DNA from: a virus
Taxonomy: Duplodnaviria > Caudoviricetes
Strand: one strand, 5' to 3'
Length of the DNA stretch: 64,000 nucleotides
Virus record (IMG/VR): IMGVR_UViG_3300017902_000306
Span: 1 to 64,000 of that record
In this document: in pieces, positions 42,949-62,323 of the stretch
Layout: each line of letters starts with the position of its first letter
Position numbering within the stretch: position 1 is the stretch's first letter
Notes under the pieces: model-generated
What the model was told of the DNA's origin: nothing
Database searches by the model: none
Seen by the model: the letters and a program-made list of their open reading frames with translations, nothing else
Made by a program: the position numbers and the translations under genes

Positions 42949-42956
42949 TATAAATA
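42949..42956 (+). promoter_or_regulatory. T4-type late promoter of the riboswitch unit
   Basis: Exact TATAAATA just after the gp23 terminator. Confidence 0.8.
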
Positions 42957-43003
42957 ATTATTGCCCACTCGGGCTCCATAAGTCATGGGTGAAAAGACTA
43001 CAT

Positions 43004-43063
43004 TCGTTCATCCACCCTAAATGTAGCGGTGGACGGAAGTAGGCAATTCCGCCGAAGGAACGC
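43004..43063 (+). promoter_or_regulatory. glutamine riboswitch, glnA-motif (class I) type
   Basis: P1 CGTTC(43005-09)/GAACG(43058-62); P2 TCCACC(43011-16)/GGTGGA(43028-33); CGGAAGTA; P3 GGC/GCC; GAAGGAACGC. Matches the glnA consensus CGUUCAUC...GACGGAAGUAGG...CCGAAGGAACGC as recalled. Confidence 0.85.
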
Positions 43064-43085
43064 ATCTTCTAAAGGGAGGTGTTAT

Positions 43086-55167: not shown

Positions 55168-55248
55168 TAAGCCCTTGATTTAAAAGGGAAACTATTTTCA
55201 CTTTTTTCGCTCGAGCCCCTTGACATCTGCTTCGATAGCTGTCATAAT
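55168..55248 (+). promoter_or_regulatory. early sigma70 promoter with upstream IHF-consensus site (copy 1)
   Basis: TAAGCCCTTGATT (55168-80; reverse strand AATCAAGGGCTTA fits WATCAANNNNTTR); TTGACA(55220-25)-17 nt-CATAAT(55243-48). Confidence 0.75.
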
Positions 55249-55276
55249 ATGTATATATTGAGATGAGAGATAGTTA

Positions 55277-57589
55277 ATGAATATAGGTTCCAAATCCCAA
55301 CTCGCCAAGTTGCTCGCCACCGAGGATATCTCTGTGGAACATGCAAATGTCGAGACTGCGTATTTCGATCTGAAAGAACGCAAGGTGGTTCTTCCCAACT
55401 GGAAGGACATGCCCCCCGAATTGTATGATCTACTGCTTGGCCACGAGATCGGTCACGCTCTTGTTACCCCGCTAGAGGGTTGGCATGATGCGACTTGTTC
55501 CGAGGGCCCTGCCTTCAAATCATTTCTTAATGTTGTCGAGGATGCTCGTAACGAGCGACTGACCAAACTACGATACCCTGGCTTAGTCAAGTCATTCTAC
55601 AAGGGTTACAGTATACTTCACAAAAGAGATTTCTTTGGTATTGGTGATCGTGATGTCAATACCTTGCCTCTTATTGATCGAATCAACCTACACTACAAAG
55701 TGGGTTCATTCGCCAATGTTTCTTTCACTGCTGAAGAACAAATCTGGCTCAATGCGATTGATGCCGCTGAGGAATGGGATGAAGTTGAACAGATTGCTCG
55801 TGACTTGTTTGCTCTCGCCAAACAAGAGATGCAAGATCAACCACAAGCACCATCCATGCCAGAACAATCTGATGATGTTGAAGAATCCGATGATGCTGGT
55901 TCTGCTCCTTCACCTAGTCCACTTGATGATGCTGAAGATGGCGAAGAACAAGATGGCGACACTGGTTCCGATGGTGAGTCTGATGACGGTGAAGAATCTG
56001 ATGAAGATGTTGACGGTGAGACTGGCGACATTTCTTCTGATGATGCCGAAGAAGAAAAAGATTCTGACTCCGAGGCCGAATCAAAAGAGGAGTCTGGTGA
56101 TATTGATCTAGGTAGTGAAATCAATGATCCAGTTGCTGCCACTGACATGGCATTCCGTGAGAATGAGGAACGTCTAGTTGAGAATTCTCAAAATGAGTGT
56201 GTTGTCACTGCTAGAGTTCCTAAGTTGAATCGTGCTCGAAACGTGATGACTACTGATCAAACATGGTCAGAACCCTTTGTGGTCTCAAAAGATCGTTGGT
56301 CACATGACCATCTTTCTCCTGCCGAACAAAAGAAGTTCGTTAAAAAGTTGAATGAGGAATTTCAAAACAAAAACAAATCTTCCATCAATCAATTGGTGAT
56401 GCAGTTTGAGATGAAGCGCAAGGCGTCAGAGTTACGCAAGGCTCAGGTCAACAATACTGGTAAGTTGAATGAAGACAAGTTGTGGGCTTACAAGTTGACT
56501 GATGATTTGTTTCTGTCAAACACTGTTGTGCCTAAGGGTCAGAATCATGGTATGTTCATGGTTCTGGATATGTCTGGTTCAATGGGTAACCATATGGAAG
56601 GAACTATCGAACAGTTATTGATCCAAGTTTCTTTCTGTCAAAAAGTTGGCATCCCATTTGATGTTTACGGGTTCACTTCCTGTATGGGAACCCCAGACTC
56701 ACTTGGGCCAAAACAGTCAATGAACAGTGGTGAACTGGTTGTGGAAAACGGCGTTGGCCTTGTTCAGTTGATTACTTCTGACAAAGGTTCTGCTGAGTTT
56801 ACTAGGTGTTTTGAAAACTTGCTCATGTATGCAAGTTGTTTCGGAACTTTTTGCTCTCGCAATAGTAGGGAGTCTTATCAGGACTGCTACGTTGAATACT
56901 ACAATCTTCCTAATTGGTTACAACTTGGTGGCACTCCGCTTGCTCAGTCAATGGTGGTTGCTATTGATGTTGCTAAGGAGTTCAAATCACGCAACAAAGT
57001 TGAAGTGTTGAACACAATCGTGTTGTCTGATGGTGAGAATACTGACAATTTCAGTGTTGTTGATACCAATGTCGATGGCCATGTTACCTTCAACCGATTC
57101 CAAACAATTCCTAACAAACTTGTTCTGAAAGATGGTTACACTTCTGTCGTTGTCACTGAACCTGAGAGTAGTTTCTATCGTGGTTGGGGTTCAATCTCCA
57201 GAGGCATTTCACTGAAGGGTGTCATGGAATTGTTCAAGTCTGTCACTGAGTCTCGAATGATTCACTTGTTCCTTTGCGGCAAAAGCAAACGTGAAGTCAA
57301 AAACAATTGGCACGACATGACTGGCATCCGTGATCACTGGACACCAAACCCAGAGTTTGAAAAGACTTACAAAGAATTCTGGAACAAAAAAGATTTCTTG
57401 CCTGTCGATAGTGTATGGGGATTTGATGCTGCGTTTCTGATCAAGGGTGATTCGCTCAAAGTTGAGGAAGCGGAATTGGAAATCAAGTCTGAGAAAAAGG
57501 CCGATGTGCTGCGTGGATTCCGCCAGTTTCAGTCTAAAAAGACTAATTCCCGCCACTTCATTAACCGATTCATTGATCAGGTTGCGTAA
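55277..57589 (+). CDS. HExxH metallopeptidase-like plus vWA (CobT-like) protein
   Basis: HEIGH, FLNVVEDARNE, long acidic linker, MIDAS VLDMSGS, GGTPL, IVLSDGE. Confidence 0.85.
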   Translation: MNIGSKSQLAKLLATEDISVEHANVETAYFDLKERKVVLPNWKDMPPELYDLLLGHEIGHALVTPLEGWHDATCSEGPAFKSFLNVVEDARNERLTKLRYPGLVKSFYKGYSILHKRDFFGIGDRDVNTLPLIDRINLHYKVGSFANVSFTAEEQIWLNAIDAAEEWDEVEQIARDLFALAKQEMQDQPQAPSMPEQSDDVEESDDAGSAPSPSPLDDAEDGEEQDGDTGSDGESDDGEESDEDVDGETGDISSDDAEEEKDSDSEAESKEESGDIDLGSEINDPVAATDMAFRENEERLVENSQNECVVTARVPKLNRARNVMTTDQTWSEPFVVSKDRWSHDHLSPAEQKKFVKKLNEEFQNKNKSSINQLVMQFEMKRKASELRKAQVNNTGKLNEDKLWAYKLTDDLFLSNTVVPKGQNHGMFMVLDMSGSMGNHMEGTIEQLLIQVSFCQKVGIPFDVYGFTSCMGTPDSLGPKQSMNSGELVVENGVGLVQLITSDKGSAEFTRCFENLLMYASCFGTFCSRNSRESYQDCYVEYYNLPNWLQLGGTPLAQSMVVAIDVAKEFKSRNKVEVLNTIVLSDGENTDNFSVVDTNVDGHVTFNRFQTIPNKLVLKDGYTSVVVTEPESSFYRGWGSISRGISLKGVMELFKSVTESRMIHLFLCGKSKREVKNNWHDMTGIRDHWTPNPEFEKTYKEFWNKKDFLPVDSVWGFDAAFLIKGDSLKVEEAELEIKSEKKADVLRGFRQFQSKKTNSRHFINRFIDQVA

Positions 57590-57667
57590 GTTGTTGATTT
57601 CAAAGGGAAAGAAAATTAAATTATTTTCGCCAAGCCCCTTGACATTTGCTATAAAGGCTGGTAAGCT
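57587..57667 (+). promoter_or_regulatory. early sigma70 promoter with upstream IHF-consensus site (copy 2)
   Basis: TAAGTTGTTGATT (57587-99; reverse strand AATCAACAACTTA); TTGACA(57639-44)-17 nt-TAAGCT(57662-67). Confidence 0.7.
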
Positions 57668-57704
57668 AGGTATATAAAGTTGAGAAATTGAGAGTGAGTT
57701 TATT

Positions 57705-58874
57705 ATGAGTGTAAAACAGAAAGATCAGTTGATGTCCGCCCTTGCTGAGGCAAACAATTCCACGGGAATCTTCACTAAGTCTGAAGTTCTCAAAATCGCT
57801 GCTGAGGCTGGTCTCAGTAAACCGATGTGGTTTTTCAAAGAGGCCAAAGTTGGTCGCAATCAGTTCAATCCTTCAATGGTTGGTCAAGTTGTGCAAATGC
57901 CAAAACCAGTTGAAGTGATTCAAACACAACCAGAACCAGTTGCCGCTGCTGCGTCTAAGGTTCTAACCATGGCGAAACTTGCAGTGGAAATTGAAAACCT
58001 AGTTCCTGCCAAAGATTCGACATACGTTCCTTTCGGTTTCTATCGTGACCTAGTGAACATTGTCAAGTCTGGTATGTTCTACCCTACTTTTATTTGTGGT
58101 CTCTCTGGTAACGGTAAGACCATGATGGTTGAACAAGTCTGCGCTAAGTTGCAGCGTGAGGCAATCCGTGTCAACATTTCGATTGAGACCGATGAAGATG
58201 ATTTGATCGGTGGCAATACGCTGGTTGATGGTAACGTTGTCTATCGTGAAGGCCCTGTGTTGACTGCCATGAAACGTGGCGCAATTCTGATCCTTGATGA
58301 GATTGACCGTGGATCAAACAAGTTGATGTGTCTACAGGCAATCCTTGAAGGCAAACCCTACTTCAACAAAAAGAATGGCGAAGTTGTCACTCCCGCCGCT
58401 GGTTTCAACGTGATCGCTACTGCGAACACAAAGGGCCGTGGTTCCGATGACGGTAAGTTCATGGGTGCTCAGATTCTTGATGAGGCGTTCCTTGAGCGAT
58501 TCGCAATCACGGTTGAACAGGAATACCCTTCCGCTGTTCAAGAGAAAAAAATCATTGTCAACAAAATGACTGTCGCCAATTGTGTCGATGAAGATTACGC
58601 TGACAAGTTGGTTACTTGGGCTGATGTGATCCGAAAGACTTTCTATGAGGGTGGCATTGATGAGTTGGTTTCGACTCGCCGACTTGAACACATTGTCAAG
58701 GCGTTCGCCATGTTTGGTGACCGACTCAAGGCGATTCAGTTGTGTGTCAACCGATTCGATACTGACACCAAGGCTGCGTTCATTGATCTCTACACCAAAG
58801 TAGATGCTGGTGTTGATCTTGATGCCGAAGTGACAGAAACTTCTGAGGAAAAGGAAGATGATCTTGACTTCTAA
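57705..58874 (+). CDS. cobS: MoxR/CobS-like AAA+ ATPase
   Basis: GLSGNGKT, ETDEDDLIG, ILILDEID, ATANTKGRG, LDEAFLERF, STRRL. Confidence 0.93.
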   Translation: MSVKQKDQLMSALAEANNSTGIFTKSEVLKIAAEAGLSKPMWFFKEAKVGRNQFNPSMVGQVVQMPKPVEVIQTQPEPVAAAASKVLTMAKLAVEIENLVPAKDSTYVPFGFYRDLVNIVKSGMFYPTFICGLSGNGKTMMVEQVCAKLQREAIRVNISIETDEDDLIGGNTLVDGNVVYREGPVLTAMKRGAILILDEIDRGSNKLMCLQAILEGKPYFNKKNGEVVTPAAGFNVIATANTKGRGSDDGKFMGAQILDEAFLERFAITVEQEYPSAVQEKKIIVNKMTVANCVDEDYADKLVTWADVIRKTFYEGGIDELVSTRRLEHIVKAFAMFGDRLKAIQLCVNRFDTDTKAAFIDLYTKVDAGVDLDAEVTETSEEKEDDLDF

Positions 58875-59142
58875 TATAAATTACAAATACAATGAAGGAG
58901 CTCTTATCAAAGAGCTCCAAAAATATATTGATGCTACCTATGGTGAACACTACTCAATCAATAAGTATCAGGCGACTGAGTTTATTATTGACGGTGGCCA
59001 CGGTGAGGGGTTTTGCATTGGAAACATCCTAAAGTATGCACAACGCTACGGTAAAAAGGATGGATACAACCGAAAAGATTTGATGAAGGTGTTACACTAC
59101 GCCTTGATCGCACTCCATGTTCACGACTTAGAACAGGAGTAA
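58858..59142 (+). CDS. DUF3310-like protein
   Basis: TY.EHYS, GEGFCIGNILKYAQRYGKKDG...DLMKVLHY. Confidence 0.75.
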   Translation: MILTSNINYKYNEGALIKELQKYIDATYGEHYSINKYQATEFIIDGGHGEGFCIGNILKYAQRYGKKDGYNRKDLMKVLHYALIALHVHDLEQE

Positions 59143-59147
59143 CAGTT

Positions 59148-59218
59148 CCGCTACGGCGGGCCGGACATCGTGCAGACCTCTCTCACTCTCTCTCAATATG
59201 CCGATGTCCGGCATTTTT
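59148..59218 (+). ncRNA. candidate small RNA/structured 3' element: UACG hairpin plus long hairpin with CU-rich loop
   Basis: CCGC-TACG-GCGG (59148-59); 11-bp stem GCCGGACATCG(59160-70)/CGATGTCCGGC(59202-12); loop GACCTCTCTCACTCTCTCTCAATA; T tract after the stem. Confidence 0.55.
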
Positions 59219-59220
59219 AT

Positions 59221-59228
59221 TATAAATA
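59221..59228 (+). promoter_or_regulatory. T4-type late promoter
   Basis: Exact TATAAATA upstream of 59268. Confidence 0.7.
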
Positions 59229-59267
59229 AGAGAGATAAATAAACAACTGTCGAGAGGAGAAATTCAA

Positions 59268-59603
59268 ATGGCATTTAGATATCGAATGACTTTTACAAGG
59301 GCCAATGCAGACACAGAGTGGCCTTTTTGGGAATCAAGTTTGACCAGCACTTCTTTTCAAACTAAAGCAAACGCATGGCAAGATTGGTATGCAGAGAGAT
59401 CAGATTCTTCTCTGTCAACTTCCACTAGTGCTGATGGTAATACCATTCACATTGACTTGATGTTTGCAAATGAGGAGGCATGGAACACCTTTAGGTCAGA
59501 AGCAGAATCAGCTGGTCTTGATAATCAGTGGGCGGATAGTAATGTTACTTCTTGGATGACCACCAATAATGTCTCTTTGTCGGAGTCAAGTGGAGCAGTT
59601 TAA
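59268..59603 (+). CDS. hypothetical protein
   Basis: 111 aa, GAGGAG RBS, own late promoter. Confidence 0.7.
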   Translation: MAFRYRMTFTRANADTEWPFWESSLTSTSFQTKANAWQDWYAERSDSSLSTSTSADGNTIHIDLMFANEEAWNTFRSEAESAGLDNQWADSNVTSWMTTNNVSLSESSGAV

Positions 59604-59635: not shown

Positions 59636-59659
59636 GTATTTTGTTGATTGGAGAAATTT

Positions 59660-60316
59660 ATGATGAAAGTTAGTAAACCCACACTTGATACCTTTAAGAA
59701 CTTTGCCTCTATCAACACGAACCTTCTAGTTCGTGAGGGGCAAACTCTTTCTACGGTATCAAATTCTATGAACATTCTGTGCCGTGCTGCGGTGACAGAA
59801 ACTTTTCCACGAGAATTTGCCATCTATGACTTGAACCAGTTCCTATCCCTATTGACTATGGATGAGGATGCTGATCTTGAGTTTGGTGATGAGTCTGTTA
59901 CCGTGAAAACTGGCGTTGGTAAGTTTGAGTTCTTCTATGCAGAACCATCCGTTATCAAGGCTGCACCAGACAAAGAGATTCCTGTCGAGGAATTGTATTC
60001 CTTCTCTGTCACCAGAGATACTATCCAGACAATCTATCGTGCTGCGTCTGCTATCTCTGCTCCCTTCCTGAGAGTAGTTGGTGATGGTAGTCAGGTATCG
60101 CTCTCTGTTGGTGATCCCAATACGCCCAAGAGCAATTCGTTCACGATGTCTCTGGGTTCAACCGATCTTGAGTTTGATGCTAGACTTGGCATTGACTCAC
60201 TCAAGATCATTCCCGATGATTATGATGTGACCATTGGCACCAAACCAGTGATGAAGTTCAGTAATTCTGGCCGAGTATATTGGTTGGCGCTTGATCCATC
60301 CTCAAAAGTAGGATAA
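59660..60316 (+). CDS. gp45: sliding clamp
   Basis: MKVSKPTLDTFKNFASINTNLLV, FAIYDLNQFLS, FFYAEPSVI, LKIIPDDYDV; start set at ATG 59660. Confidence 0.95.
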   Translation: MMKVSKPTLDTFKNFASINTNLLVREGQTLSTVSNSMNILCRAAVTETFPREFAIYDLNQFLSLLTMDEDADLEFGDESVTVKTGVGKFEFFYAEPSVIKAAPDKEIPVEELYSFSVTRDTIQTIYRAASAISAPFLRVVGDGSQVSLSVGDPNTPKSNSFTMSLGSTDLEFDARLGIDSLKIIPDDYDVTIGTKPVMKFSNSGRVYWLALDPSSKVG

Positions 60317-61865: not shown

Positions 61866-62323
61866 AAGAATTTGATTACAGTTTTGATTACAAGTCTCTT
61901 GACTTTACAGATCAGGAGACTCGCAAACTGTATCGTATCGGCAGGGGTGAACAAGGTGTTCTTCTGGTTCGCCCCTACACCGATTTGATTTGTGCTCACT
62001 GGAGATTCAAAACACCAGAAGAAGCAAAAGAATCCAGTGACCGAATCTATTCTATGTTCAAACAATACAAGCAAAGTGATGATTTTATTGGCATGGACAT
62101 GGCACGCAAGTTCCTAGAGATGGGATTCACTCGTGCGAGAAGGTATGCAAACCACAACGATGGCAAAAAGTATGACAGTGAAGGGAATGTGAAACCGCAA
62201 GAACCCGATTGGAATACCAGTAAGTATGCTATCGCTGCAAGAATCTTCAAGAAGGTTCGTGACTTGGCTGCATACGATGAAGATTATTTGGTTATGAGAA
62301 AAGAGTGGAGATCGAATGAATGA
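61862..62323 (+). CDS. DUF4385-like protein
   Basis: YRIGRGEQGVL.V.PY...WRFKT, MDMARKFLEMGFTRARRYANH. Confidence 0.85.
   Translation: MKEFDYSFDYKSLDFTDQETRKLYRIGRGEQGVLLVRPYTDLICAHWRFKTPEEAKESSDRIYSMFKQYKQSDDFIGMDMARKFLEMGFTRARRYANHNDGKKYDSEGNVKPQEPDWNTSKYAIAARIFKKVRDLAAYDEDYLVMRKEWRSNE

Follow-up and report, generated by a model that had tools for sequence, protein, structure and literature searches.

The 64,000-nucleotide stretch analysed here (the window) comes from a 74-kb IMG/VR virus record with an estimated completeness of 45%, and the phage behind this record is an uncultured marine T4-like myophage. Its CobS protein is ~52% identical to cyanomyovirus and pelagiphage HTVC008M proteins, and the only nucleotide-level matches among isolates are to OM43 phage Melnitz records, inside the DUF3310 gene. 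The locus examined runs in the order vWA/peptidase, cobS, DUF3310, a hairpin element, the late-promoter motif TATAAATA, a 111-aa gene, an early promoter and the gp45 clamp gene. All 14 copies of TATAAATA in the window lie on the + strand, which fits T4-type late promoters. The phage encodes the translational repressor RegA at record position 64569–64928; a RegB family search of three near-complete genomes, run without a positive control, returned no match. The genes and promoters of the locus are as follows.

55220–55248, + strand: sigma70-like early promoter of the vWA-peptidase gene (TTGACA-17-CATAAT, class TTGACatCTGC...), conserved in relatives
55277–57589, + strand: vWA/peptidase gene (phrog_459)
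57639–57667, + strand: early promoter of cobS (TTGACA ... TAAGCT), sigma70-like
57705–58874, + strand: cobS-like AAA+ gene (AAA_5, CbbQ_C)
58858–59142, + strand: DUF3310 gene (PF11753), last gene of the early unit, with its TAA stop at 59140–59142
59221–59228, + strand: TATAAATA, T4-type late promoter of the 111-aa gene
59268–59603, + strand: 111-aa late gene (MAFRYR...)
59607: early promoter, followed by the gp45 clamp gene at 59648–60316

Directly behind the DUF3310 gene, the initial annotation had described a cUACGg mini-hairpin followed by an 11-bp perfect stem around a pyrimidine loop, and all of these parts are present. The element comprises two hairpins and a U-tract.

59144–59147, + strand: AGUU directly 5′ of the first hairpin, a putative RNase E-type processing site
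59148–59159, + strand: mini-hairpin CCGC-UACG-GCGG, 4 bp, abutting the next helix; compensatory changes in 4 of 4 pairs
59160–59212, + strand: long hairpin with an 11-bp + 3-bp stem and a 24-nt loop; compensatory changes in 14 of 14 pairs
59175–59198, + strand: apical loop GACCUCUCUCACUCUCUCUCAAUA, a conserved CU repeat
59213–59220, + strand: U-tract AUUUUUAU, terminator tail

The perfect 11-bp portion of the long stem joins 59160–59170 to 59202–59212, the inner 3 bp join 59172–59174 to 59199–59201, and the CU repeat of the loop is flanked by GACC and CAAU. The minimum free energy of positions 59140–59225 is −33 kcal/mol, compared with −16.3 ± 2.5 kcal/mol for 200 dinucleotide shuffles (z = −6.7), none of which reached the energy of the real fold (0/200). 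The short sequence A/G-G-U-U stands 5′ of the first hairpin in 23 of the 24 distinct sequences compared. The G+C-rich 11 + 3-bp stem, followed by AUUUUUAU right after the last gene of the unit, has the form of an intrinsic terminator; the loop does not, because it spans 24 nt here and 19–26 nt in relatives rather than the ~3–8 nt of a short terminator loop, and a terminator consensus scan of the element reports just a 6-bp sub-hairpin. Ordinary terminators before late promoters in the window (contexts 42949 and 43303) carry tetraloops, which marks the 24-nt loop as something added to a terminator.

A comparison of the window with Rfam 15 returned no family at gathering score except a glutamine riboswitch elsewhere, and the sole local match at the hairpin site (E = 6.8) is on the opposite strand. 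The riboswitch aptamer (RF01739, 60 bits) occupies window positions 43003–43066, right behind the late promoter at 42949. Three other accounts of the site were set aside. No sigma70-like site was found between 58900 and 59147, and a promoter belonging to the hairpin RNA itself was dropped for that reason. A minus-strand 48-aa open reading frame (59128–59274) was discarded, since the covariation of the stems is that of RNA pairs, and a put-type antitermination RNA, which would also present two adjacent hairpins, was dropped in view of the U-tract that follows the second hairpin at the operon end. Among public RNA runs, four metatranscriptome contig sets contain read-length pieces in cobS, the late gene and gp45; none of the pieces in these sets covers 59148–59220, which is no evidence either way. 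The phage is present in DNA runs X1–X16.

We compared 80 loci encoding CobS relatives, drawn from more than 590 cobS-linked loci. The same architecture recurs in ~50 related IMG/VR loci with one copy per genome: every lineage down to ~69% CobS identity (L002–L049, except truncated loci) carries exactly one copy, as does a complete 165-kb genome. An unanchored MAFFT alignment analysed with RNAalifold misaligned the stems and recovered no structure; a covariance model seeded with the window sequence was used in its place. In the resulting model-guided alignment the stems take at least 8 unrelated sequences between lineages and compensatory changes occur in 18 of 18 pairs. Paired cells amount to 97.3%, compared with 62% when partners are shuffled and 32–48% when the register is slid; this alignment is fitted to the model, and independent single-sequence folds give the same structure. 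G-U pairs are present on the + strand, indicating that the folded molecule is the + strand RNA. A U-run follows the hairpin in all relatives carrying the element, and the operon-end position of the hairpin is conserved. The proposal in the initial annotation of an sRNA derived from a 3′ end is thus borne out as far as a conserved, covarying and strand-specific structure at the 3′ end of the vWA–cobS–DUF3310 unit is concerned.

The loop behaves differently from the stems that present it: columns of its CU core are 86–100% conserved, whereas stem columns average 65%. Judged from these alignments, selection maintains the loop sequence, and the stems drift. Six loop variants occur. Variant I reads CCUCUCUC-AC-UCUCUCUC and variant II is variant I with one extra UC; variants III, IV and V read CCUCUCUCUUACUCUCUC, CUCUCUCACUCUCUC and CCUCUCUCUCCUCUC, respectively, and variant VI is a single run, GACCUCUCUCUCAAUUG. 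When IMG/VR was scanned for the CU-core pattern, most matches were unrelated low-complexity sequence, and only 3 of 79 new loci (80 listed, one already known) fitted the structure model strongly. The locus is plastic around the hairpin. In L044–46 (L044:5514–5700) the hairpin is kept, the late gene is missing and a degenerate TTATAAAAAATA is present; in L030–39 (L030:5418–6587) ~1.1 kb of extra sequence separates DUF3310 from the hairpin.

The conserved loop is the antisense of a AAUUGAGAGAG(G/U) box found at the Shine–Dalgarno (SD) position of a few early leaders. The initial annotation had quoted the reverse complement of 59177–59200 and aligned it with the leaders of the vWA and cobS genes; the quoted sequence is correct, and both leader matches were confirmed.

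55255–55270, + strand: vWA leader GA box ATATTGAGA (55255–55263, 9 nt) and TGAGAGA, at the ribosome-binding site (RBS) position; duplex with the loop −17.2 kcal/mol
57680–57698, + strand: cobS leader GA boxes TTGAGA (57680–57685) and ATTGAGAGTGAG (57687–57698); duplex with the loop −22.1 kcal/mol

The longest perfect match of the cobS leader to the loop is 9 nt. When 93 translation starts were ranked by duplex energy, cobS came first (−22.1 kcal/mol), the gene at 73311 second (−22.0 kcal/mol) and vWA fourth (−17.2 kcal/mol), and these three leaders belong to the TTGACatCTGC promoter class; the vWA and cobS energies fall within the best 1% and the best 0.03%, respectively, of random sense 38-mers of the record. 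The third-ranked translation initiation region (62281–62318, start 62316, leader GAGAAAAGAGUGGAGA, −19.1 kcal/mol) may be a further target or a chance match.

In all loop-bearing lineages, vWA and cobS are preceded by one promoter class, cccTTGACatCTGC...CATAAT or TAAGCT, and the SD position of their short leaders is filled by AAUUGAGAGUGAGAG, AAUUGAGAGAGAGU or UUGAGAGAGGUC. The vWA and cobS boxes are 8–13-nt perfect loop complements in every one of these lineages, and the matches take in non-repeat flanks, GGUC with GACC and AAUUG with CAAUU; the type VI loop is in essence the reverse complement of the box consensus. The annotation had also suspected that other GAGAG/GGAG leaders might be involved. 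In the complete genome G001 the boxes are concentrated in early leaders genome-wide. A 9-nt loop match occurs in 5 of 23 early leaders, in 0 of 19 late leaders and in 0.05% of random 38-mers. Six of the 19 sense matches of at least 9 nt, and three of the four of at least 11 nt, are found immediately 5′ of a start codon, downstream of an early promoter.

The promoter class cccTTGACatCTGC also occurs at record 73246–73274, beyond the window. The short leader that follows it always has an AAUUGAG...GAGAG box, and such units number ~6–7 in complete relatives (G001rc 576, 4975, 108470, 110873, 125370 and 158810). Contigs with identical hairpins can carry cobS boxes one GA unit apart, ATTGAGAGAGAGAGTT as opposed to ATTGAGAGAGAGTT (L008:869 versus L009:134 and L010:1143). 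One-unit differences, of GA in the box and of UC between loops I and II, make both partners look slippage-prone.

How finely the loop is matched to these leaders is a separate matter. The initial annotation had named interaction energies no better than those of dinucleotide-shuffled controls as grounds for abandoning its proposal, and such shuffles of the loop did as well as the real loop in 32 of 300 cases by summed match length and in 65 of 300 by summed energy. Because loop shuffles pair equally well, the signal is that of a CU repeat facing a GA repeat and nothing finer; the non-random part is the GA-repeat boxes in early leaders, not a fine match to this particular loop. As for chance, which the annotation had asked to be excluded, the hairpin is clearly more than that by its covariation; the vWA and cobS leader matches rank fourth and first of the 93 starts but do no better than loop shuffles. 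A duplex-energy scan of a whole genome that tolerated G-U pairs was uninformative, since it returned 262 site clusters of −13 kcal/mol or lower within purine-rich coding sequence. Judged as an sRNA or 3′-UTR riboregulator, the element offers a conserved single-stranded seed within covarying stems, and candidate targets whose RBS complementarity is kept in relatives and enriched over background; dinucleotide shuffles did not reveal specificity beyond base composition.

The expected co-conservation of loop and leaders is likewise only partly seen. The two occur together, and both the hairpin and the GA-box leaders are missing from more remote relatives (L050–L081, HTVC008M and Melnitz); this co-occurrence is confined to one clade and so represents one evolutionary event. 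Within the clade, the loop centre (CAC versus UUAC) and the vWA and cobS leaders vary independently, and no compensatory covariation between the loop and these two leaders was seen across lineages. Type III (UUAC) lineages, for example, keep GAGAGUGAGAG in the vWA leader, which matches CAC (type I) loops over 12 nt and their own loop over 8 nt.

From sequence comparison, then, the structure is well supported and its function is a candidate one. We consider the element to be probably a phage-made regulatory RNA, with candidate expression and candidate targets. The reading that we favour, with confidence falling somewhat short of even, is that of an extended anti-SD seed embedded in a terminator or 3′ UTR that represses early mRNAs bearing GA boxes. 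The hairpin would be the intrinsic terminator of the early vWA–cobS–DUF3310 unit, elaborated into a small structured RNA in which the UACG mini-hairpin stacks on the long hairpin and the oversized loop displays the CU repeat. Transcripts from the vWA and cobS promoters would end at the hairpin, and the loop could then engage the 5′-terminal GA box of its own mRNA, a 5′–3′ UTR contact comparable to that of icaR (PMC3868564). A stable ~70-nt 3′ fragment ending in the U-tail, left by mRNA decay or released by putative cleavage at AGUU, may also act in trans on other GA-box leaders, comparable to RepG (PMC8295292).

Pairing of the loop with the boxes in vivo would occlude the RBS, and early genes would be turned down as the RNA accumulates. 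Box occupancy should block initiation, because the loop can form 9–13 bp with the boxes as against ~5 bp for the canonical 16S anti-SD. The predicted outcome is delayed negative feedback on a small early regulon, whose candidate members in the record are vWA, cobS and the gene at 73311, with one sigma70-like promoter class. The only long CU repeat in the 165-kb genome is the exact antisense, flanks included, of boxes concentrated at early RBSs. The retention of the hairpin in L044–46, which have no late gene downstream, counts for the favoured reading. A bolder form of it, which we put forward tentatively as possible and rather doubtful, is that the terminator-embedded extended anti-SD mimic shuts off a dedicated early regulon defined by GA boxes and one promoter class, as an RNA counterpart of T4 RegB and RegA, and that the slippage-prone repeats on both partners could tune its strength.

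The initial annotation had overlooked the late promoter that follows the hairpin and a complementary GA box behind it, and together these features raise a cis-acting alternative.

59229–59235, + strand: AGAGAGA, a GA box immediately after the late promoter and complementary to the loop's 3′ half
59252–59259, + strand: late-gene SD region GAGAGGAG, complementary to the CCUCUC of the loop's 5′ half

Under this alternative, which we regard as unlikely, the loop masks the adjacent 111-aa late gene in read-through early transcripts by pairing with the GA box and the SD in a bipartite, pseudoknot-like manner, and transcripts started at TATAAATA, which lack the loop, are translated. TATAAATA is found within 5–13 nt 3′ of the hairpin and is followed by a GA run, a feature of just 1 of the 14 late promoters in the window; the promoter thereby sits between the loop and the RBS/SD. 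Bipartite pairing of AGAGAGA and the SD sequence GAGAGG (59252–59257) with the two loop halves is predicted at −15.9 kcal/mol. In T4, late transcripts begin a few nucleotides behind TATAAATA. A late start of this kind would leave most of the GA box present only in read-through early transcripts, which suggests early masking of the late gene, for which T4 gene e is a precedent (PMC3014915). In gene e, which encodes lysozyme, an inhibitory strand upstream and the RBS flank the late promoter, which confines translation to late transcripts (PMC3014915). The position of the late promoter matches the phage locus, but gene e sequesters its RBS in a simple local hairpin (PMC3014915), whereas the complementary strand here is a terminator loop with a short match that some lineages lack, and the hairpin outlives loss of the gene.

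Comparison across lineages bears on this masking model in both directions. The type III (UUAC) box AGAGAGUAAGA is an 11-nt perfect complement of its own loop, as against 6–7 nt for other loop types, and is the only lineage-specific match seen; however, AGAGAGUAA also occurs in L004, which has a CAC loop, and the 11-nt match adds 4 nt to an ancestral 7-nt one. In L018 and L030–39 the hairpin stays beside the late gene even though DUF3310 lies 0.13–1.1 kb away, whereas in L044–46 it lies between DUF3310 and an early promoter plus gp45, with neither a late gene nor TATAAATA. Type V lineages and L040 lack the box and retain 4–5 nt of complementarity, so that complementarity of mask and RBS, which gene e-type masking would require in every case, is absent from some of the mask-bearing lineages. 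A strong hairpin with a U-tract should in addition allow little read-through.

The GA boxes themselves admit an explanation that does not involve the loop. They occupy the SD site and often contain GAGG, and the cobS start contexts UAAAUUAUG and UUUAUUAUG (window 57696–57707 and the equivalents in relatives) are similar to T4 RegA operators such as AAAUUAUGAUU (PMC3014915). Given their SD position, the GAGG and these RegA-operator-like AAAUUAUG contexts (PMC3014915), something other than the loop could be what keeps the boxes conserved. The terminator loop might accordingly be a platform or decoy for a protein (S1, Hfq or a phage protein), with no RNA–RNA pairing, and the early boxes merely an unusual SD or a RegA operator. 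The phage encodes RegA, its leaders end in AAAUUAUG-type contexts like those of T4 RegA operators (PMC3014915), and conservation of the loop sequence is not matched by any demonstrable specificity of pairing. This account names its candidate partners by type and points to no specific protein. It also treats as coincidence that the CU repeat is the antisense of the early RBS boxes, flanks included, and the hairpin and the GA-box leaders share their phyletic range; we think it improbable. Finally, although the loop is a near mirror-repeat CT tract of a kind that the pattern scan finds in many unrelated viral contigs, chance low complexity or a DNA-level element (a polypyrimidine tract, cruciform or origin) is very improbable, given that only contigs of the hairpin clade fit the structure model, that all 18 pairs show compensatory changes with G-U pairs that make sense on the + strand only, and that the operon-end position and U-tract are conserved.

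A pyrimidine-rich loop or 3′ UTR that masks an SD is a known bacterial design. The C-rich loop sRNAs of Firmicutes (RNAIII, RsaE/RoxS) use apical pyrimidine loops to mask the SD of several mRNAs; unlike the phage element, they are host-encoded, carry UCCC or CCCC motifs and belong to another phylogenetic setting. Among phage RNAs, the c4 antisense RNA of P1 and P7 is processed from an operon transcript, and its loops pair with RBS-proximal sequences of the same phage's genes. It differs from the element described here in lying upstream of its target, in a temperate-phage immunity operon, and in having neither a terminator-loop seed nor a repeat.

The seed geometry resembles that of RepG, an sRNA of Helicobacter pylori whose seed is the C/U-rich loop of its terminator hairpin and whose pairing partner is a purine simple-sequence repeat, variable in length, in an mRNA leader (PMC8295292). 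RepG is a free-standing chromosomal sRNA gene with a G-repeat target (PMC8295292), whereas the phage element lies at the 3′ end of an early operon, sets (CU)n against (GA)n and has several candidate leaders. The arrangement proposed for the phage is known from the icaR mRNA of Staphylococcus aureus, where the 3′ UTR contains a pyrimidine motif resembling an anti-SD that base-pairs with the SD region at the transcript's own 5′ end and represses translation (PMC3868564). The icaR mRNA is monocistronic and its motif is UCCCCUG (PMC3868564); the phage unit has two promoters, three genes and a seed of 18–24 nt, and the further boxes elsewhere in its genome would need action in trans. The proposed function is that of the T4 repressor RegA and nuclease RegB, proteins that shut off early mRNAs post-transcriptionally through their translation initiation regions (PMC3014915), with an RNA in their place. 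If the favoured reading of an anti-SD seed is correct, a phage example would join the small set of terminator-loop and 3′-UTR anti-SD regulators.

Literature searches found no description of the hairpin motif. To our knowledge, lytic phages have yielded very few regulatory RNAs, and the abundant, uncultured T4-like marine phages none. In lytic marine T4-like phages, an element of this kind, conserved, present once per genome and built into a terminator, appears not to have been described before, and the same holds for a seed made of a repeat that matches a group of early leaders of the phage itself. The motif is new as a structured RNA, it covaries clearly and it comes with a candidate seed and a short list of candidate targets; it raises the question of whether the early-to-late switch of marine myophages is timed by RNA, instead of or beside RegA-type proteins.

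Two further observations concern the genes around the hairpin. In HTVC008M (L215, 7321–7524) a ribosomal protein S21 gene follows cobS, and its position is taken in the hairpin clade by DUF3310 and the anti-SD-like hairpin; the two might conceivably be different means to bias the initiation of translation. The product of the 111-aa late gene (MAYR/K in relatives) has neither a Pfam nor a PHROG match; its fold is predicted (pLDDT 94.7) to be a beta-alpha-beta-beta-alpha-alpha-beta domain, and the nearest solved structures are dimeric alpha+beta-barrel/ABM-type proteins, with weak TM-scores of 0.4–0.55.
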